From IMG/VR virus record IMGVR_UViG_3300028591_000074, positions 160,001 to 224,000 of that record: a stretch of 64,000 nt of DNA; one strand, 5' to 3'. This stretch comes from a virus (taxonomy: Duplodnaviria > Caudoviricetes). Below the pieces are notes generated by a model. That model did not search any database. It had not been told where the DNA came from and saw only the letters and a program-made list of their open reading frames with translations. Made by a program: the position numbers and the translations under genes. Shown in pieces: positions 3,196 through 64,000 of the stretch; the first letter of the stretch is position 1, and every line of letters starts with the position of its first letter.

Positions 3196-3882
3196 ATGTG
3201 TACAGAGAATATGGATAAGATGATTGAAAAGATCAGTAACCTGCTTGATTTGGCAAACAATAATCCGAATGAACATGAAGCGTTGGCAGCTGCTCTGAAA
3301 GCACAGGAGCTTATGGCTAAATATCACATCGAACTTGCAGATTTGGATCATGATGCAGGAGTTGAAATTGTGGAAGAATCTTGTGGAGTTGATGTTTCCG
3401 GTCCATCCAAATGGAAAGTAAAGTTGGCAAATATCATTGCAGAAAACTTCTGTTGTAAGGTATACCATAGGGAAGAACGTAGCATCTTTAGTCGCACATC
3501 CAGGAACTATGTTGTATTCTACGGATATGAGCATGATGCAAAGATTGCAAAGGAAGTATTTACCTTCCTGTTCAATACCGGAATCAAATTGGCAAGACAT
3601 GAATACTACGAAGCAAAGAAAGCCGGAAAGTACACAAAATATGTAATGAATACATATCTCATGGGATTCTGTGATGGAATCGGTGAAGTTCTTGCAAAAC
3701 AGTGCACAGCACTTATGGTAGTAACTCCGAAAGAAGTAATTGACTCTTATAATGAAATGTCACAGGGATTTAAGGTACAAAAATCAAGAGTAACTATCAA
3801 TAGTGATTCTGGTGTTTATGAGCGAGGAATCCGAGATGGTAAAGATGTTGCAAATGCAAGATCAATAGAAAAAGCATGTTGA
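3196..3882 (+). CDS. DUF2786-domain protein
   Basis: N-terminal IEKISNLLDLA-NNPNEHEA-AAALKAQELMAKY signature. Confidence 0.75.
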   Translation: MCTENMDKMIEKISNLLDLANNNPNEHEALAAALKAQELMAKYHIELADLDHDAGVEIVEESCGVDVSGPSKWKVKLANIIAENFCCKVYHREERSIFSRTSRNYVVFYGYEHDAKIAKEVFTFLFNTGIKLARHEYYEAKKAGKYTKYVMNTYLMGFCDGIGEVLAKQCTALMVVTPKEVIDSYNEMSQGFKVQKSRVTINSDSGVYERGIRDGKDVANARSIEKAC

Positions 3883-3898
3883 AAGGATGTGAATTCAT

Positions 3899-4075
3899 AT
3901 GAATAGATATACAGTAGAATTCAAATATGCAGATATCCTGTCAGGTTGGGAATGGAGAAATCAGAGTTGTTCTGTATATGCAGATAATGAATCCGGAGCA
4001 AGAAGAGAATGCATAAAGATTTACGGACTTGGTGTAGATTGTGACTATCAGATCACAAAAGTCACGATGGAATAG
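3899..4075 (+). CDS. 58-aa hypothetical protein (not in ORF track)
   Basis: ATG 3899 after AAAGGA; reads MNRYTVEFKYADILSGWEWRNQSC...; TAG at 4073-4075. Confidence 0.55.
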   Translation: MNRYTVEFKYADILSGWEWRNQSCSVYADNESGARRECIKIYGLGVDCDYQITKVTME

Positions 4076-4092
4076 AAAGGGGTGTAAATGTT

Positions 4093-4686
4093 ATGACGAA
4101 GAAAGAACTGTGTAAGATTTTTACAGATAAAGTTACAGAATATATCAGAAATGGGTATGTAATCACTCCAAATAGTTTCTCCGGGTCTGATGGGACAAGC
4201 CGTGTGGACTTGGTTAAAGATGATAGTTTCACCAGAATTTATATGGATGAAGAACCTGATTTTGATTCATATATGGATAGAATCTACATTAGGGTTGCAG
4301 AAAGAAAACTGATCGGACAAGAAAAGAAAAATATCTACAATATGGATATTATCTGGACAAGTGAACTTACAACAATCTATGAACTTAGTTTCATCGTCAT
4401 CAGTAAGTATAGGCATCCATACTACGTTACAGAGGAAGAATATGCGGAACTTAAAGATAAGATTGCGGAAAGAAATAGACGCAGATATGATAAGTATGCA
4501 TCCGCATTACGAAAGATCTATACATTCCCGGATAGTGCAAAGAAAATTGTTCTACCATTCATTCAGAGTAAACCAAAATGCAAATCCGTAAAACTGAAAG
4601 ATATTGGAAAAGTTGAAAAGTATGTATATGATGACTTCGTAACCTACAAAGTTTACTGCAAAGGTAAAACTTATACACTTCACTGA
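4093..4686 (+). CDS. hypothetical protein
   Basis: 197-aa ORF with RBS. Confidence 0.6.
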   Translation: MTKKELCKIFTDKVTEYIRNGYVITPNSFSGSDGTSRVDLVKDDSFTRIYMDEEPDFDSYMDRIYIRVAERKLIGQEKKNIYNMDIIWTSELTTIYELSFIVISKYRHPYYVTEEEYAELKDKIAERNRRRYDKYASALRKIYTFPDSAKKIVLPFIQSKPKCKSVKLKDIGKVEKYVYDDFVTYKVYCKGKTYTLH

Positions 4687-4783
4687 TGTAACTTAAATTC
4701 ACTATATAAAAATAGCAAATCAATACGGAAAGAATATGTATTGGATTATGACCAAATCGAAACTACAGTAGTACTTATATAGT

Positions 4784-4824
4784 AAAATAAAACCCTTTGA
4801 AAATCTCCAAAGGGTTTTATTTTT
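4784..4824. terminator. bidirectional intrinsic terminator
   Basis: AAAATAAAACCCTTTG...CAAAGGGTTTTATTTT hairpin with A/T tails. Confidence 0.75.
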
Positions 4825-4894
4825 ATATTGACTGTATATTCAATACATTGTAAAATGATTGTAGTGAATAATTTAATTAGGGAGGATATTTAAT

Positions 4895-7222
4895 ATGAAT
4901 AGGGTATGTGCATTATGTGGTAACACATTTGAAACCAATAGTCCAAGACAGAAATATTGTAATGCGGATATCATAATAAATTGCATAGTATGTGGAAAGC
5001 CGATACATACGAAGTGTAATCCTAAAAGAGTTTCTGTATGTGGTAGGTCCTGTTCTGCTAAAGCATCTACTAAGAAACTATTCACCTGCGCTATCTGTGG
5101 TAGTAAATTCACACCAGCATCTTCAAGACAGAAATATTGTAAGAAACCTATAAAAAAGATATGTGCAGTTTGCGGAAACACATATGAATCATTCTGCGGA
5201 GATATTGACAGAAATACATGCGGCAAGAAGGCATGTAAAGTTGAATATACACATAAAATGTCAGTAAATCACTATTTAGCAACAAATAGGATATGTGCTA
5301 TTTGTGGAAAAGCATTTCATCCAGTAAACAACACACAAAAATATTGCAAAGTAATGCATGAAATTAACTGTGTAGTATGCGGAAAAGAATTTATAACAGA
5401 CACAAGTAAACAAGATTTTGCAAAAACATGCTCTATGGAGTGCCACTATAAATTGGCAAGTGCAAATAAATCTGAAGAAACAAAGAAAGCTGCAATTATA
5501 AAAGCACGAAAAACATACAAAGATCGTACTGGATATGATATGCCTATGCATAATCCAAAAGTGATAGAAAAGATTAAGCAGACGAATGTAGATAGATACG
5601 GTGATACTGCATTTGTTCGTACAGATGCATATATAGAAAAAGCAATACAGACAAATCGTGATAGGTATGGAACAGATTGGCCTGGACAATCCGATCAAGT
5701 AAAGGAAAAACGTAGAAACACAAATATGAAAAAATATGGTGTCGAAAACCCGGCATCTTTGGAAGTCTATATTCAAAAAGCAAGGGAAACTTATTTTAAG
5801 AAAACTGGGTATATCCACCCATCAGTTAATCCGGATGTTATTGAAAAACGAAATCAGACTAATATCAAAAAATATGGTAGTGTAGGTATTCTAAATAATC
5901 CGGATGTAAAATCAAAATACCAAAAAACTATGATTGAACACTATAATGTTACAAGTCCCCAATTATCTGAAGAAATTCGCAATAAGACTTATGAAACAAA
6001 TTTACAGAGATATGGGAATATATCGTACTTAGGTTCAAAACAAAATCAAGATTATGTCCAACATGTGATGATGGAACTCCATGGAAAGAGACGATATTCA
6101 CAGACTGCTGATTGGAAATCTGATAGGATGGCTGATCCATCGAAAGTGGATGAATGGGTGAAATTTTTAGACGATCCTAAAGGATATTTATGCAGATATG
6201 ATGAACTACCTACAATGCACAAATTGGAATTAGACTTAGGTGTTACAGAAACAACTATCGGATACTGGGTCAATTATTACAATCTTTCTGAGTATATAAA
6301 ATATACATTATCCGGTATGGAAGATGAACTTGTAGATTTCATAAAATCTGTAGATCCAACCATATATGTAAAACGGCATGAACGAAAATTGATTAGTGGA
6401 TACGAATTGGATTTATATCTACCAGACTACAAATTAGCAATCGAATGCAATCCAACTTGTACACACAATTCAAGTATGTCTGATCCTTGGGGTAGTAGTC
6501 CAAAATTACCTTCATACCACAAAAAGAAAACAGATTTATGTGAAGAACATGGTGTATTCTTATTTCACATTTTTGGCTATGAATGGAAATATAAACGGGA
6601 TATTATTAAATCAATGATTCGAGGATTACTTAGTAAATCTGAAAATAGAATTTATGCCAGAAATTGTGATATACGAAATGTATCCGCATCAGACGCAAAT
6701 AAGTTTTTAGACAAAAATCATAAGCAGGGTGCATCCGGTTCATCCATACGATTAGGATTATATTACAACAATGAACTTGTAAGCCTAATGACATTTGGAA
6801 AAATGAGGTACACAATAGGCACATCCAAAAGAGAAGATTTATCAGATTGTTGGGAGCTTATAAGATTCTGTTCAAAATTAAATACATCTGTAGTTGGTGG
6901 TGCAAGTAAATTATTCAAACATTTTATAATAAACACCAAACCTAAAAGAGTTAGATCATTTTCTGATAGGGCACATACAAAAGGTACATTATATTCAATA
7001 TTAGGATTTACAGAAATAAGAAGAAGTAAGCCATCATATGTTTGGGTAGATAGCAGAACAGATGAAAGTTACCACAGATACAATTCTCAAAAGAAAAATT
7101 TAATTAGGTTTCTGCACGATGATGCAATTGATTTAACAAAATCAGAAAAACAAATTATGGAAGAACATGGATTCCTACAGGTCTATGATTCTGGTACAAT
7201 TACATGGGAATGGAAAAAATAA
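4895..7222 (+). CDS. Hef-like (Vsr/PD-(D/E)XK-type) homing endonuclease with tandem zinc-ribbon and KxTNxxRYG repeats
   Basis: about 6 CxxCG repeats, 6-7 TNxx(K/R)YG-type repeats, YELDLYLPDYKLAIECN nuclease core, YHKKK, C-terminal RFCSKLNTSVVGGASKLF and VYDSG motifs. Confidence 0.7.
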   Translation: MNRVCALCGNTFETNSPRQKYCNADIIINCIVCGKPIHTKCNPKRVSVCGRSCSAKASTKKLFTCAICGSKFTPASSRQKYCKKPIKKICAVCGNTYESFCGDIDRNTCGKKACKVEYTHKMSVNHYLATNRICAICGKAFHPVNNTQKYCKVMHEINCVVCGKEFITDTSKQDFAKTCSMECHYKLASANKSEETKKAAIIKARKTYKDRTGYDMPMHNPKVIEKIKQTNVDRYGDTAFVRTDAYIEKAIQTNRDRYGTDWPGQSDQVKEKRRNTNMKKYGVENPASLEVYIQKARETYFKKTGYIHPSVNPDVIEKRNQTNIKKYGSVGILNNPDVKSKYQKTMIEHYNVTSPQLSEEIRNKTYETNLQRYGNISYLGSKQNQDYVQHVMMELHGKRRYSQTADWKSDRMADPSKVDEWVKFLDDPKGYLCRYDELPTMHKLELDLGVTETTIGYWVNYYNLSEYIKYTLSGMEDELVDFIKSVDPTIYVKRHERKLISGYELDLYLPDYKLAIECNPTCTHNSSMSDPWGSSPKLPSYHKKKTDLCEEHGVFLFHIFGYEWKYKRDIIKSMIRGLLSKSENRIYARNCDIRNVSASDANKFLDKNHKQGASGSSIRLGLYYNNELVSLMTFGKMRYTIGTSKREDLSDCWELIRFCSKLNTSVVGGASKLFKHFIINTKPKRVRSFSDRAHTKGTLYSILGFTEIRRSKPSYVWVDSRTDESYHRYNSQKKNLIRFLHDDAIDLTKSEKQIMEEHGFLQVYDSGTITWEWKK

Positions 7223-15734: not shown

Positions 15735-17354
15735 TTATAACAGTAGAAGTCCACCATCTTCTAATAATAGATTTCCACCTTCTTCTAATTCCATATATCT
15801 TACGTATTCATACCAATCTGTTAAATCCGCTGATGTTACATTTAAACCGTCAAACATATCTTCTACATATGGATCCTCGTAATGTACTTTTCCAGTTTGT
15901 GTCCACCAGTAGATGATTTGTTCATTTTCCGATACGGTGAAGTATAAATACAATGGTTCTTCTGTATTAAATATTGTGTAGGGAACTAAACATCCCTGTT
16001 TATATTTCGATTTTACAAAAGATACAGGTCCAGATTTATTTGGAAGTTTCTCCGTTAGTAACTGGTTTAGTGCATTTGGATAATCTGATGTATCTCCTAA
16101 TAATGCATAAGGTATGTTATCATTGAATGGGTAAGTTACCTTTGTTGCAAATTCGGAAACACTACCAATTTGTATTTTCCATACTACCTGTACTACTTGA
16201 TTTACACCAACCTTTAAGACATTTTCCTTTAATATCTTCCGGTTTTCTGGAACATGCATATCCCAGTTTTCCTGATTGGGTGGAACAATACGATATCCAG
16301 CAAGTAGTCCGTTTTCATTACCTGATTGGAATGTTTTCTTAGACCAAAGACCTGCTTCTGTGATGAAGATATAGTCATTGTCTTTCGGTCTAAATTGCTT
16401 TAATGCACCTGTACTTATAATGGAACTAAATACAATGTCTATGGTTTTAGGTACTTCTGCTTCGTATTCTGGAACTACATCCCGGTAGGAAATGTCCATT
16501 CTTGGGAAGGTTGGACTAATCAGTTCCATATTGATTGTAGTATCTAAAGATGGTTGGTAGACATCATCTTCCTGTTCCCATAAATTGGTATCAAATACAC
16601 TTGCCGGAATTGGTGTATCAGAAGTACATTTATATAAAATACCTTTATAGGTTACTTCATCACCAACACGATAATTGGATGTCACATCATAGGAACTCCA
16701 AGGCCAACCTAATCCGAACCATTTTCGGTTATTGTTCTTATCCGCAGAATAACCATCAGCACCATAGCCAGGAACATGTTCCATATATTCAACAAATCGT
16801 GCTTCTTCATTATATTGAAGAAATGCATTTCTTGCTAAATCATAATTTTCCTTCGCACGTTCGACTGCGCGTTTCTTCCTTTGGATTCTATCAGAACATA
16901 TCGTACAATTTGCACATTCTTCGGTTGCAGGCCAATATTTACATTCATTCGACATAGCAACATTGGCTGCATCTAAAACTTCTTTGGCTTCGTTCATTGC
17001 CTGAAGAAGTGCCTGATATTCTGGATCGGATGAGTTTGGAACAGAATCACCAATACCTGCCGGAAGTCCTTCTGAATCTTGATCTTGATTGATAAGTCCC
17101 ATTGTACCGAGGGAAATATATCTTGGTACAAAATTAGACAGCATAGAATAACCAGGATTCAGTCCATGTGTTTCATTTGGAAAGAAATCACCAATCAGAT
17201 GATGTGCTATGCCAAATAACATGGAATTGGTAGCCTGATTATGTCCAATATGTTCTTGAACTACCTTTCCTGTAATTCGATCTATTACCTGTATGGAAAC
17301 ATTTTGCTTAATGCTAAGATGCTTTGCGGCATCTAATATTCCTTGCTTAGTCAT
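15735..17354 (-). CDS. tail/baseplate structural protein with CBM5/12-like module
   Basis: YRVGDEVTYKGILYKC...W module; ITEAGLWS motif typical of tail-fibre N-terminal/collar domains. Confidence 0.6.
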   Translation of the reverse strand: MTKQGILDAAKHLSIKQNVSIQVIDRITGKVVQEHIGHNQATNSMLFGIAHHLIGDFFPNETHGLNPGYSMLSNFVPRYISLGTMGLINQDQDSEGLPAGIGDSVPNSSDPEYQALLQAMNEAKEVLDAANVAMSNECKYWPATEECANCTICSDRIQRKKRAVERAKENYDLARNAFLQYNEEARFVEYMEHVPGYGADGYSADKNNNRKWFGLGWPWSSYDVTSNYRVGDEVTYKGILYKCTSDTPIPASVFDTNLWEQEDDVYQPSLDTTINMELISPTFPRMDISYRDVVPEYEAEVPKTIDIVFSSIISTGALKQFRPKDNDYIFITEAGLWSKKTFQSGNENGLLAGYRIVPPNQENWDMHVPENRKILKENVLKVGVNQVVQVVWKIQIGSVSEFATKVTYPFNDNIPYALLGDTSDYPNALNQLLTEKLPNKSGPVSFVKSKYKQGCLVPYTIFNTEEPLYLYFTVSENEQIIYWWTQTGKVHYEDPYVEDMFDGLNVTSADLTDWYEYVRYMELEEGGNLLLEDGGLLLL

Positions 17355-59456: not shown

Positions 59457-59492
59457 AATAGAACTCAGCAGTTTAATTGTTGAGTTCTATTT
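59457..59492 (-). terminator. terminator closing the minigene array
   Basis: AAATAGAACTCAGCA...TGTTGAGTTCTATTT hairpin, T-run on the minus strand. Confidence 0.7.
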
Positions 59493-59649
59493 CTAATACA
59501 AAAGAATCTTTCTGTACAGTTGTAAGTGCATTTGCTACTCCATCAAAACTTGGTTCTAACCGTTGTTCGAGATAGATTCCAGGAGTACGGTCTGATGGAT
59601 TTTCTGGGTTTCTGCCACGCATAGCACATGAAAAATATAATTTAGTCAT
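59473..59649 (-). CDS. C5-MTase variable-region-like module 8 (58 aa)
   Basis: AMRGRNPENPSDRT...EQRLEP..DGVANALTTVQKDSFVLE. Confidence 0.7.
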   Translation of the reverse strand: MTKLYFSCAMRGRNPENPSDRTPGIYLEQRLEPSFDGVANALTTVQKDSFVLEIELNN

Positions 59650-59650
59650 C

Positions 59651-59776
59651 TCAATCACCAAAATAGATCACAAGAAAATCCATTCTACCAGAACGAAAAG
59701 CTGGTGCATAGTCATTATAGAATCTTGCGTTTCTGACCGTTGCATATGTATCATCAACTATCCACATCTGAATCAT
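59651..59776 (-). CDS. C5-MTase variable-region-like module 7 (41 aa, not in track)
   Basis: MIQMWIVDDTYATVRNARFYNDYAPAFRSGRMDFLVIYFGD; ATGA overlap with module 6. Confidence 0.6.
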   Translation of the reverse strand: MIQMWIVDDTYATVRNARFYNDYAPAFRSGRMDFLVIYFGD

Positions 59777-59967
59777 CTATCACAACCCCAACTATCATCT
59801 ACTTGTATCACAACCATTGGAACTCTGCCACCGCCTTGAGAAGTTGTCAATGATGGACAAAAATAAGCTGGATCCCAAACATTTCCGGCATACCCGGTTC
59901 CAAACTCTTCATTATATATATTAGCAAGTTTCCTTACATTGAATTCCAATACCTTTCCACCATTCAT
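59773..59967 (-). CDS. C5-MTase variable-region-like module 6
   Basis: LANIY...GYAGNVWDPAYFCPSLTTSQGGGRVPMVV; start at 59967 (ATG) or 59949 (TTG). Confidence 0.7.
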   Translation of the reverse strand: MNGGKVLEFNVRKLANIYNEEFGTGYAGNVWDPAYFCPSLTTSQGGGRVPMVVIQVDDSWGCDR

Positions 59968-60121
59968 ACACTGCAACATTTGCAAATCCATACCCATGTC
60001 CTGCACCACCATAAACAATAGCCGGAAATATTCCATCAGTATTGACAACAATACCTCCTTCGGAATTACCTGTGCTATAATTACATATTGTTATTATTCT
60101 GTTCGTATCTTGATTTATCAC
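59921..60121 (-). CDS. C5-MTase variable-region-like module 5
   Basis: IITICNY...EGGIVVNTDGIFPAIVYGGAGHGYG. Confidence 0.6.
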   Translation of the reverse strand: MINQDTNRIITICNYSTGNSEGGIVVNTDGIFPAIVYGGAGHGYGFANVAVYEWWKGIGIQCKETC

Positions 60122-60253
60122 AAATAAGTACCGCCGTTACAGTTCCATGATTTTCTTTGACACATGGCGCAACCCCCCCCCACCCACAGAAACAATTCTT
60201 GAAGCATCATGGTTGCTGAACATATAATTTCCTAAAATGATAATTTCATTCAT
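60081..60253 (-). pseudogene. module 4, frameshifted at a G9 tract (60173-60181)
   Basis: MNEIIILGNYMFSNHDASRIVSVG[G9]VAPCVKENHGTVTAVLI is in frame with G7 or G10. Confidence 0.7.
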
Positions 60254-60410
60254 CTTCACACCAAACTAATACAAATGGTTTATTCCCACCACCCTGCATG
60301 GTTAATATCGTAGGAGCTAAACCATTTGGATCATATAAATCTCCGCGTCCACCAGTAAAATTTGTAGGATTATTGTAAACGAACCCTAACCGAATTATAG
60401 AATCATTCAT
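60246..60410 (-). CDS. C5-MTase variable-region-like module 3 (54 aa, not in track)
   Basis: MNDSIIRLGFVYNNPTNFTGGRGDLYDPNGLAPTILTMQGGGNKPFVLVWCEDE. Confidence 0.75.
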   Translation of the reverse strand: MNDSIIRLGFVYNNPTNFTGGRGDLYDPNGLAPTILTMQGGGNKPFVLVWCEDE

Positions 60411-60566
60411 CTTCATCTCTTACCAAAATAAATAATTTTGCACCAGTTATAATTGTGGTCATCAATGAAGGGCAAATTCCTCCAGAATCATAGGTAGATC
60501 CATCATATCCGGCTTTACATTTACCGGATACCCCCCCCCTAAGAATATGATCTTAAAATTATCCAT
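60403..60566 (-). pseudogene. module 2, frameshifted at a G9 tract (60531-60539)
   Basis: MDNFKIIFL[G9]VSGKCKAGYDGSTYDSGGICPSLMTT... is in frame with G7 or G10. Confidence 0.7.
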
Positions 60567-60733
60567 CACTCACCACAACCCTTATCGGAGTTTTGAAATC
60601 TCTTGCACATAGACTTGGAGATACCACCCCCCCCCGATGAATAAATATAACACCATTGATGCATTTTTCCACTATCATTCTCCGGAAGAAGTAATCCAAC
60701 TGCCAATATTTCGTTTTGTTCAGATAATATCAT
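60559..60733 (-). pseudogene. module 1, frameshifted at a G9 tract (60627-60635)
   Basis: ...ILAVGLL...MHQWCYIYSS[G9]VVSPSLCARDFKTPIRVVV is in frame with G8 or G11. Confidence 0.7.
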
Positions 60734-61529: not shown

Positions 61530-61602
61530 AAGTATATCCTCAACAATATAGTAACACATATACTAATATATGTCAATCGTAAATGTACTACATATAATTA
61601 AA

Positions 61603-63078
61603 GTGAACTCTCTCCCACCTGTAGAGGTGGGAGCTTCGTAAGAAGATTGGTATTTAAGTTTCCACCTAAAATCAGGCAACCCTTATTCTTACAGGCGTGT
61701 CCACTTCGCCACTACCGTATAGGGCTGTTAAGTCCACAACGCTACTTTTTCTTAAAATGTTCAATGCACCGTTGACATCTGCATTTAGTAATCTTCCGTC
61801 AGCAGTTCTGTACAGTCCTCTCCGTATGCGTGTTCCGCTGAATTTATAAGACTGCGGATTATCTGCATTGTATACAGGAATATTATCTCTGTCCCAGAAA
61901 GATGCCTGTGACGTATAGCTTTCTTCCTGTTCAACAAAAACAATGCCGTTCAGTTCACAAAGATATTCCAGTTTGGAACGCAGTTTACCATACGGAATAT
62001 TGACAAAATTCTGATTGCTACACTTGTTCATGTCAGAATTACGCTGAAATGTTTCATTATAGCCGATTACAAGCGTTCCAATATCGTGATCAATACAATA
62101 ATCAATGATTTTTCTTGCAGTTTTGCTCATATAGTCATTGACTTGTCTGTTCCTTTTATCAGCTAAGATTTTCTGACGGTTTGTTGTTCTTCTTTTATTA
62201 CCCTGTCTGTCTTTGATACCTTGCAGCCGTGCATTTTCTTTGTTAAACCATTGATTGACAGCTTTCAGTTTTCTGCCGTCAATAATGAAACTTCTGCCCT
62301 GATTTGATACAGCAGTTACAAGATTATTCACACCTAAATCCAAAGCAAGTGCATTGTTTTTGTTAAGATTTCTCTGAATACATTCAACTTCGTAAGTATA
62401 CTGAATTTCAAAGAACCTTGCTCTTGATTTTGGAATGATTCTGATTTCCTTGATATGCTTGTCAGCAAGTATCGGCGGCATTTTGATTTCGACAGGCTCA
62501 TGTGTTTTCCTAAATGTATTGGAATATGGAAGAATTAGTTTATTTCCGTTCAGCCTGACAAAACCTATCACAAGTGTTGTAAATCCATCTTTTGGCAGAT
62601 AATGTGGTAGTTTGCAGTCTCTGAAAGAATATTTTCCTTTTTTCGCAAGTTTCAAAAGTCCGAAAAAACTTTTGAACGAACCGTCTACTTCTTTCAGAAT
62701 CTGCTGTGCCATATTAGAATTCAAAGTTTTGTAATTAGGGCTGTCTTTCAGCAATGCGTAATTCTTTTCGTAGTTCAGATATTTTCCCTCTGTGAAGTAA
62801 TACTGACGGATATTGTAGATTGCTTCATTGGCAAGATTTTTTGCTGTATGACACAATTCTCTCAAAATGCTGTATTCTTCCTTTGACAGATGTTTCGCTT
62901 GTTGCTTTACCGTTAGATACATAGTTTCTTCTCCTTTCTTTAGATTTAGGATAATTCCTATGTATCTATTATAGTATATATTTTACTGAACGTCAATAGT
63001 TTCAGTAAAAAACAATCAGCATTCATCCACCACTTTCGCTTCTCTTAGAAGTGTGGGGTATTCTGCCGAGGATCTAAA
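61603..63078 (-). mobile_element. IS1341-type TnpB-only element
   Basis: left end TTTAT|TTTAGATCC...ACCCC hairpin; right-end CTCCCACCT hairpin ending TTCAC. Confidence 0.75.
61672..62922 (-). CDS. tnpB: TnpB RNA-guided nuclease
   Basis: ALDLGVNN, EESYTSQ, NADVNGALNI; RuvC-II region reads LVIGYN. Confidence 0.9.
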   Translation of the reverse strand: MYLTVKQQAKHLSKEEYSILRELCHTAKNLANEAIYNIRQYYFTEGKYLNYEKNYALLKDSPNYKTLNSNMAQQILKEVDGSFKSFFGLLKLAKKGKYSFRDCKLPHYLPKDGFTTLVIGFVRLNGNKLILPYSNTFRKTHEPVEIKMPPILADKHIKEIRIIPKSRARFFEIQYTYEVECIQRNLNKNNALALDLGVNNLVTAVSNQGRSFIIDGRKLKAVNQWFNKENARLQGIKDRQGNKRRTTNRQKILADKRNRQVNDYMSKTARKIIDYCIDHDIGTLVIGYNETFQRNSDMNKCSNQNFVNIPYGKLRSKLEYLCELNGIVFVEQEESYTSQASFWDRDNIPVYNADNPQSYKFSGTRIRRGLYRTADGRLLNADVNGALNILRKSSVVDLTALYGSGEVDTPVRIRVA

Positions 63079-63747
63079 ATAAAGCCATAGGTACGAAAGT
63101 TTTATTTAATCGTTCATTAGCTATCTTACACCATTCTGGATTTAATTCACAACCAAGATATTTTCTTCGAAGTTCTTTTGCACAAAGTAGATGTGATCCA
63201 GATCCTGCGCAAGGATCAAATATGATATCGCCTTCGTTAGAATTGTCGGATATTAACTCTTTCAACAAGTTGTGATTCTTTTCTGTAGGATGAACAGTAC
63301 TTGTTCCAGATGGGTAGTGAAGCACGGTATTCTTACAAAACGCATTAAATGTTGCACCAGACTTCTTAAACCAAACCGCGTTTTCGATTCCGGACAAATA
63401 GATAGTTTTGCCATTCATAGGGGATGGATTCGTTTTCTCCCACACGATCTGACGAACTGTTCCCAAAGAATCGGATTGCTTATCTGCAAAAAATGTATAT
63501 ATCGAAGAAAGTTGTCTTTGACCACAAAATATTATTATACATCCAGATGTTACACGGTAAACGGAATTCAAAAATTCTGATAAATCAAATGTAATTTCAT
63601 CGGCATAGGATTTGTCTAAATTTCGCAATCCACCAGATTTACGATTCACCTCAGCATATGGAATATCGGTTAGAGTTACATTAACCCCCCCCCCGTAGTC
63701 ATAGTTTTCATATAATCAATGCAATCCACATTTAGTATCGTATTCAT
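63074..63747 (-). pseudogene. N4/N6 DNA methyltransferase (beta class) frameshifted at a G10 tract (63685-63694)
   Basis: MNTILNVDCIDYMKTMTT[G10]VNVTLTDIPY (motif IV) ... HPTEK, IFDPCAGSGS (motif I); full length with G8 or G11, as sequenced it stops after 23 aa. Confidence 0.85.
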
Positions 63748-63892
63748 TACCACAATCTCCAATCAAAACAATCATAGGAATATATCCACCACCAGTACCC
63801 ATAGAAGATGTAAGGCAAGTGCAAATTCCATCTGTCTTTACGGATTGATGATCTTGCATCCCGCCTATAATTATATCAAGAAATGTCATCAT
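63716..63892 (-). CDS. C5-MTase variable-region-like module B (58 aa, not in track)
   Basis: IIIGGMQDHQSVKTDGICTCLTSSMGTGGGYIPMIV. Confidence 0.7.
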   Translation of the reverse strand: MMTFLDIIIGGMQDHQSVKTDGICTCLTSSMGTGGGYIPMIVLIGDCGNEYDTKCGLH

Positions 63893-64000
63893 TGATCACC
63901 AAAATCATAGGAACTTGACCACCACCTTCTCTGGCAGCGACCTGAATAGTAGGACTCAAGTAATCAGAATCATATATGATGCGACGTTGAGAACTGTTCG
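63876..64000 (-). CDS. C5-MTase variable-region-like module A (5' end outside the window)
   Basis: ...SQRRIIYDSDYLSPTIQVAAREGGGQVPMILV. Confidence 0.65.
   Translation of the reverse strand, partial: NSSQRRIIYDSDYLSPTIQVAAREGGGQVPMILVINDDIS

Follow-up and report, generated by a model that had tools for sequence, protein, structure and literature searches.

Several genes in the methylation island of a rumen jumbo phage change reading frame at a long run of G, which raises the question of whether these genes are broken, misread or switched. The window that we analysed, 64,000 bases in length, corresponds to bases 160001-224000 of one 253,527-base contig of this phage (35.8% G+C), which sequencing-run records assign to sheep and ruminant gut. 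Genes here lie on the minus strand, so that runs of C on the plus strand are poly-G in the coding sense. A first-pass annotation had placed C9 runs at 60173-60181, 60531-60539 and 60627-60635, and had described them as the only long G/C runs in the window apart from a G10 in a methyltransferase gene; all three runs are present at these positions, and the next longest run in the window is a single C6. Together with the C10 at 63685-63694, they make up the full set of G/C runs of at least 7 bases in the 253,527-base genome, and all four lie within 3.5 kb, in methylation genes. From base composition, 0.13-0.14 C runs of at least 9 bases would be expected, as against the three C9 and one C10 observed. 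Among 165 long ORFs of this phage, GGG accounts for 9.4% of Gly codons, and none of the 189 Gly-Gly pairs is spelled GGGGGG; because GGG is rare and GGGGGG is never used for Gly-Gly, the tracts are strongly atypical for the genome. The four tracts (G9, G9, G9 and G10) each lie in a reading frame, exceed the length of about 7 typical of homopolymers in phase-variable loci, and are more frequent than expected from composition. As set out below, we consider it probable that the G9 tracts and the methyltransferase G10 are contingency loci that gate single specificity modules.

Reading frames in the methylation island

The methylation island contains, in order, a cytosine-5 (C5) catalytic ORF, six small ORFs, a motif IX-X ORF, four small ORFs, an N6/N4 methyltransferase gene with the G10 tract, a TnpB element, two small genes, and eight small ORFs at 60733-59473. 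With lengths of 41-74 codons, these ORFs change frame along the array and are linked through overlaps between the stop of one and the start of the next. Judged from their sequences, they look like free-standing target-recognition domains (TRDs) of a split cytosine-5 methyltransferase, and we refer to them as TRD minigenes. Megablast of the island against phage GenBank records gave no match, and an IMG/VR scan with a neighbouring 183-aa protein found no relative.

Poly-G tracts interrupt three of the eight minigenes at 60733-59473, all on the minus strand. Minigene A (module 1; 60559-60733) contains a G9 tract at 60627-60635. The sequence from its ATG at 60733 to the tract is in frame 0 and the conserved half, VVSPSLCARDFKTPIRVVVSDG, is in frame 1, so that the 55-aa ORF in the assembly leaves the module frame at the tract, and the repaired minigene is a 57-aa module with VVSPSLCARDFKTPIRVVVSDG at its C-terminal end. 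Minigene B (module 2; 60403-60569) contains a G9 tract at 60531-60539 and is truncated to 34-35 aa as assembled; when repaired, it encodes a 54-aa module. Minigene D (module 4; 60081-60259) contains a G9 tract at 60173-60181 and is truncated to 38-40 aa as assembled (P0184 is the public gene call), with repair giving a module of 56-57 aa that reads ..LGNYMFSNHDASRIVSVGG(G)VAPCVKENHGTVTAVLI.. across the tract. Minigene C (60246-60416) is intact and has no tract; the B-to-C and C-to-D junctions share the overlapping stop/start sequence GAAGATGAATGA. Four further TRD-like minigenes, E-H (59473-60121, minus strand), are intact and complete the sub-array, and two more TRD minigenes at 63716-64000 on the same strand mark an array that runs on past the window edge.

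The first-pass annotation had proposed that in each of the three modules the N-terminal half and the conserved half meet exactly at the tract in different frames, and that a change of a single nucleotide restores the module. Three-frame translation of the three modules bears this out, with the N-terminal half and the conserved ..[AS]P[SC][LV].. half in different frames that meet at the tract. Module 1 is in frame at tract lengths of 2 mod 3 (8, 11) and needs G8 or G11; modules 2 and 4 are in frame at lengths of 1 mod 3 (7 and 10 for module 2; 4, 7 and 10 for module 4), so that the G9 tracts need to become G10 or G7. A second proposal, that coupling of module 1 to the next gene survives either state, also agrees with the sequence, since neither of the two module 1 stops (60566-68 and 60559-61) is more than 8 nt away from the next start, the GTG/ATG at 60569/60566. 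Further decay of the modules had been named beforehand as an observation that would count against the proposal; the three repaired modules contain no other lesion. Hence a change of one nucleotide in the tract toggles between a full-length and a truncated product of a gene that is otherwise intact.

The fourth tract interrupts the beta-class N6/N4 DNA methyltransferase gene (63074-63747, minus strand; PF01555). The first 21 codons of this gene, from the ATG at 63747 (MNTILNVDCIDYMKTMTTGGG), do not share a frame with the DIPY motif and the remainder of the gene. The G10 tract at 63685-63694 follows codon 17, and a length of G8 or G11 would let the protein reach VNVTLTDIPY. Directly downstream lies the TnpB element (IS605 OrfB / Cas12f-like TNB) at 61599-63074, which corresponds to 3600-5075 in a subregion, L001 (genome 218000-236000), that we used for reading past the window end. 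The element is absent from contigs of two relatives, one from goat gut (X2) and one from rumen (X4), in which L001 position 3599 is joined to 5076 and 1476 bases are skipped; it was therefore inserted recently, with the RHH gene on one side and the N6/N4 methyltransferase gene on the other.

A split cytosine-5 methyltransferase and its candidate recognition modules

The C5 catalytic subunit (L001 7805-9748, minus strand; PF00145) contains motifs I-VIII and ends after motif VIII. It is interrupted by an intein of 347 residues (139-485) with Hint and LAGLIDADG domains, which sits at the catalytic Cys of motif IV (the PC motif; FSFP/C...SAN/CTDISLAG). Motifs IX-X are encoded by a separate 127-aa ORF (L001 6354-6737) that matches PF00145 profile positions 269-323. 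Motifs I-VIII, motifs IX-X and the TRDs are therefore on separate ORFs, an arrangement distinct from that of the single-chain Bacillus phage C5 enzymes. In relatives (L049 15235-15546 and its homologues), the motif IX-X ORF continues into a motif-I-like FFSGIGAFE segment that the phage studied here lacks; this extension suggests that the core of L049-type phages may be permuted or rearranged.

A further minigene, TRD6 (L001 6795-6965, minus strand), adjoins the motif IX-X ORF on its upstream side and is frameshifted at a plain ACCCACC, where one extra C would link ..RRGRAQGT to PPGSVCPALTCGCENCLVVIEE. Since TRD6 is broken at a plain C3 and not at a long repeat, the array shows either ordinary decay or a second, slower switch. 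A variant contig from the probable source sample (X1) carries a 2-nt insertion within TRD6, at L001 6820; the TRD6 frame stays broken in this contig.

Assignment of the small ORFs as TRDs is based on homology and on a structural model. A Pfam search with a single 56-aa module gave no match. Over 32 aa, the D-type module shares 69% identity with the stretch of P0207 that leads straight into motif IX (RIRKLTPKECWRLMGF); P0207, P0197 and P0208, all of them PF00145 proteins, have this TRD fused to motif IX-X. The D-type module is homologous, that is, to the region between motifs VIII and IX of PF00145 enzymes. We also predicted one complex, consisting of a D-type TRD (with an alignment headed by P0138), the two catalytic extein parts and the motif IX-X subunit. 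The model scored 0.66, as compared to 0.00 for the best of three controls; a score of 0.66 was attained by 58 of 80 solved complexes and by 2 of 110 mismatched pairs, in a calibration whose alignments differed from those used here. Model runs had at least 86% of contacts in common, with a partner pLDDT of at least 62. The model pairs the last TRD strand (residues 36-45) with a segment of the motif IX-X subunit (residues 47-53), at the site where a covalent TRD would enter motif IX. The prediction supports the notion that a free TRD may bind the split core; however, the modelled pieces belong to a fold that is often solved as one chain, and the pass may reflect that likeness.

Tract lengths in related phages

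The first-pass annotation had suggested that tract lengths be compared across related assemblies, and this comparison revealed several lengths at each site, both in frame and out of frame. Close relatives of the minigenes include intact ORFs of 52-58 aa that are 81-96% identical to the repaired modules, beside other lengths that are out of frame. A search with the read-through form of module D identified stand-alone ORFs of 55-58 aa with 87-96% identity, together with dozens of more distant ORFs; in an alignment of 33 stand-alone D-type ORFs, 11 positions are invariant. P0138, which matches repaired D at 96% identity, is in frame with GGG at the tract (..SVGGGVAPCV..); P0139, P0140 and P0142 read ..SVGGVAPCV.., with P0139 and P0140 in frame with GG. 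For module B, there are eight in-frame stand-alone homologues (P0129-P0136; 52-57 aa, 81-91% identical), which read F[LMV]GGVSGK at the tract, and repaired B is 91% identical to P0129. Module A has one in-frame homologue, P0137 (56 aa), which reads YSSGGVSPSLCARDF. The presence in public assemblies of in-frame homologues of all three repaired modules indicates that the restored reading is the natural one.

Identical alleles occur both ON and OFF. The last 34 aa of P0140 match those of P0171 exactly, but the N-terminal halves of the two are in different frames, such that the same D allele is represented both in frame and out of frame. At the N6/N4 methyltransferase site, P0126 (224 aa, in frame, ..TTGGGVNV..) and P0122 (191 aa, truncated) are otherwise identical, and belong to one 90% cluster with P0001 (..ATGGVNV..), P0124 (..ATDGVNV.., with an interrupted tract) and the truncated methyltransferase of this phage from two assemblies, of which P0125 is the Logan/ENA assembly call. 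G lengths inferred from protein sequences, as for P0001, P0126 and P0138-P0140, assume GGG codons. Tract D is also out of frame in P0200 (..SVGGGLHHVSKKIMEQ), a protein in which the N-terminal half of A is joined to module D. Similarly, P0136 joins the N-terminal half of B to an F-like C-terminal half, and P0145 contains E-type and D-type modules in one 90-aa ORF. These chimeric and fused proteins suggest that modules also recombine.

We compared the island with assembled (Logan) contigs from four public runs, X1-X4, which report consensus lengths. The contigs of X1, probably the source sample, repeated the assembled lengths at the B, A and methyltransferase tracts; no X1 contig covers tract D, where depth is lower, and we did not take this as heterogeneity. 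X3, an RNA library from another study, showed no differences at the D (G9) and methyltransferase (G10) tracts. X2 (goat gut) and X4 (rumen) contain relatives that have diverged by 3-5%. In X2, the tract is 1 nt shorter at B, still out of frame, and 4 nt shorter at A, a loss that restores the frame and would match P0137. In X4, the tract is 4 nt shorter at D and 3 nt shorter at B, and both are out of frame. All four of the X2/X4 indels listed in the sub-array lie at, or no more than 3 nt from, the three tracts.

We also scanned metagenomes for more distant gut phages, and identified 80 loci that encode an N6/N4 methyltransferase with 61-73% identity (~1 Mb in total, 31-36% G+C). These loci hold ~70 G7-G10 runs in the same kinds of genes, and all but two of the runs are on the coding strand. 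Many lie at the homologous site immediately ahead of (V/L)TLTDIPY, where ON as well as OFF states occur: L002 and L003 have G8 (ON) and their relative L008 has G9 (OFF), L038 has G8 (ON), L031 has G6 (OFF), and the tract of L035 is interrupted. In twelve loci (L039, L042, L044, L048-L050, L064, L065 and L069-L072), the N6/N4 tract is G7 in the context GATGGGGGGGCAA, ~20 nt before the TLTDIPY motif, and in their relatives L041, L045 and L066 it is G6 with a full N-terminus. The first G of the "OFF" G7 tract completes an in-frame ATG (MGGQFDLTLTDIPY), so that a truncated isoform may be made instead of none.

Other runs in the 80 loci are found in further methyltransferase genes and in split C5 methyltransferases with TRD mini-ORFs (L025, L049). 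An alignment of L041 with L045 over 20.6 kb has 1 mismatch and 2 gaps, and both gaps are in poly-G (at 17073 and 17331). Fusion of the first TRD to the catalytic ORF depends on one gap, and the presence of a start for the ORF containing a TRD plus motif IX-X depends on the other. One TRD minigene has G7, in frame, in L044 and L050, G8 in L042 and G9 in L049, with flanks that are 97.5-98.8% identical; an 87.6% identical copy of this minigene in L041/L045 differs mostly at synonymous positions. On a 104-kb metagenome contig, L025, G9-G10 tracts at 4967, 7795, 7869 and 8837 break two other N6 adenine methyltransferase genes and a putative PAPS-reductase-like gene, as read from translation. Across the whole comparison, three near-identical pairs (P0126/P0122, P0140/P0171 and L041/L045) show changes in tract length far in excess of point substitutions. 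The other phage lineages demonstrate a real mechanism for such genes; they do not establish that it operates in this phage. Overall, the comparative evidence supports the core reading of the first-pass annotation, in which each tract would act as a slipped-strand ON/OFF switch of one module.

Competing explanations and known systems

In the contingency-locus reading, slipped-strand mispairing during phage DNA replication would add or remove G's, which would bring the downstream half of a ~55-codon gene into frame or throw it out. Each such gene would encode one free-standing TRD of a split, multispecific cytosine-5 DNA methyltransferase, whose core would be formed by the catalytic subunit (motifs I-VIII, with the intein) and the motif IX-X subunit, encoded by separate ORFs a few kb upstream. 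An ON TRD is predicted to dock between the two core subunits, adding one target sequence to the methylation pattern, and an OFF TRD would yield a truncated peptide. With all four tracts OFF in this genome and other combinations in relatives, reversible switching within a phage population would give a mixture of methylation patterns, which may serve as a hedge where some hosts restrict unmethylated DNA and others methylated DNA. The first-pass annotation spoke of 2^n methylation states in the population, a number that would apply if free-standing TRDs work with the split core.

An alternative that we regard as unlikely is that the tracts are slippery sites in pseudogenes, with the modules and the N6/N4 methyltransferase dead in this lineage, no selected reversible switching, and poly-G runs that are by-products of Gly-rich loops. 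Against this, the repaired modules contain no secondary lesions, are strongly conserved (81-96% identity, with an invariant core in 33 homologues), and have diverged copies that differ mostly synonymously. The tracts are spelled with the rare GGG codon, in a form shunned elsewhere in the genome (0 of 189 Gly-Gly pairs), long tracts are kept at the same sites across lineages that are only 61-73% identical, and the same allele occurs in both states (P0126/P0122 and P0140/P0171), all of which argues against this alternative. Decay would nonetheless account for several observations that count against a switch: four of four tracts are out of frame here, as are most X2/X4 lengths, and some X2/X4 tracts are only G5-G6, which would switch slowly. 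Decay would likewise fit the break in TRD6 at a non-repeat site, and the ON and OFF states at the methyltransferase site across loci, which occur roughly as random lengths would give.

G runs of 9-10 bases are long enough for some transcriptional slippage. Programmed recoding, by RNA-polymerase slippage or ribosomal frameshifting on the G run, could yield the full-length module, in which case slippage efficiency rather than DNA length would set expression. This explanation would make sense of tract lengths in the slippage-prone range, of four out-of-frame tracts out of four, and of the two frames of module A that both end beside the next start. The required shifts, by contrast, do not share one direction: one base would be skipped (+1) for A, and one base would be read twice at the other three tracts (B, D and methyltransferase). 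In relatives, shorter tracts leave the genes plainly in frame, indicating that the out-of-frame layout is not conserved, and the RNA-library contigs carry the genomic G9 and G10, albeit as consensus only. For these reasons, rescue by transcriptional slippage, which the first-pass annotation had offered as an alternative to switching, is not favoured, and we consider recoding in general to be quite improbable. Least credible of all is homopolymer sequencing or assembly error masking tracts that are truly in frame: long G runs are error-prone in sequencing and tract D is not covered by Logan contigs from the probable source run, but the lengths were repeated in two separate libraries (three by X1, and two of four by the RNA library X3), the Logan/ENA assembly gives the same truncated methyltransferase call (P0125), the corrections needed differ in sign (-1 for one tract, +1 for three), and many different lengths occur at the same sites in many independent assemblies of relatives.

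Returning to contingency loci as the preferred reading, if the modules work as proposed, one phage genome would encode a combinatorial set of methylation patterns. This would affect host range and the outcome of restriction-modification and methylation-dependent restriction, and would change the reading of "broken" genes in viral metagenomes. More tentatively, and with confidence that falls a little short of even, we suggest a widespread phage system in which a split C5 core is served by a library of free-standing recognition subunits, each with its own poly-G tract, and in which a lineage would continually make progeny with different m5C (and m6A/m4C) combinations and so hedge against whatever restriction systems its gut and rumen hosts possess.

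In bacteria, phase variation of methyltransferases is a textbook strategy. That poly-G tracts can drive it is established, and bacterial contingency loci include poly-G tracts in restriction-modification genes of Campylobacter, Helicobacter, Neisseria and Haemophilus (e.g. PMC6321876, PMC3936762). The tracts described here resemble these phasevarions in that poly-G lies inside a methylation gene, is over-represented in an AT-rich genome, and flips the frame with a 1-nt change. They differ in that the carrier is a lytic-type jumbo phage, in that the switched unit is a 55-codon free-standing module and not a whole mod/hsdS gene, and in that the likely purpose is protection of phage DNA and not control of a host regulon. 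Our literature search found no paper on poly-G-gated free-standing TRD minigenes, and the passages returned from a 2026 review of prokaryotic methyltransferases mention no phase-variable phage methyltransferase. On the basis of this search, poly-G gating of single free-standing TRD modules in a phage appears to be an undescribed arrangement; poly-G switching of methylases is itself known.

Contingency loci in phages were first formally described in 2025, as homopolymers in T2/T4 that include one in the DNA-modification gene agt; switching of T2 agt is understood as a way to spread risk between restriction systems directed at modified DNA and those directed at unmodified DNA (Gomez, Barrick and Waters, 10.1101/2025.10.21.683753). 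The same work cites poly-G tracts in Fletchervirus receptor-binding genes (Sorensen et al. 2021, as cited in 10.1101/2025.10.21.683753), and briefly mentions a poly-G in the methylase gene of BPP-1 as unstudied. As with the T2/T4 and Fletchervirus loci, the tracts in the rumen phage would be hypermutable homopolymers in phage genes that give mixed progeny. Those loci each control one whole enzyme or tail protein, whereas here several tracts would each gate one module of a single enzyme.

Multispecific C5 enzymes of Bacillus phages, as characterised by the Trautner laboratory (M.SPRI, M.Phi3TI, M.Rho11sI and M.H2I), are single polypeptides with tandem TRDs of ~50-70 residues, each recognising one target. 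The system proposed here shares with these enzymes one catalytic core, several TRDs and a phage carrier, but the Bacillus phage enzymes have no repeat tracts, and in the rumen phage the core is split between two ORFs and the TRDs are translationally coupled minigenes. The heteromeric C5 methyltransferases M.AquI and M.EcoHK31I consist of two fixed subunits and, like the split core described here, divide the C5 motifs among polypeptides that must assemble. By contrast, M.AquI and M.EcoHK31I have neither an exchangeable TRD library nor repeat tracts; in the rumen phage the switch would act on single recognition modules of a multi-part phage enzyme, an arrangement that recurs in many gut and rumen phages.
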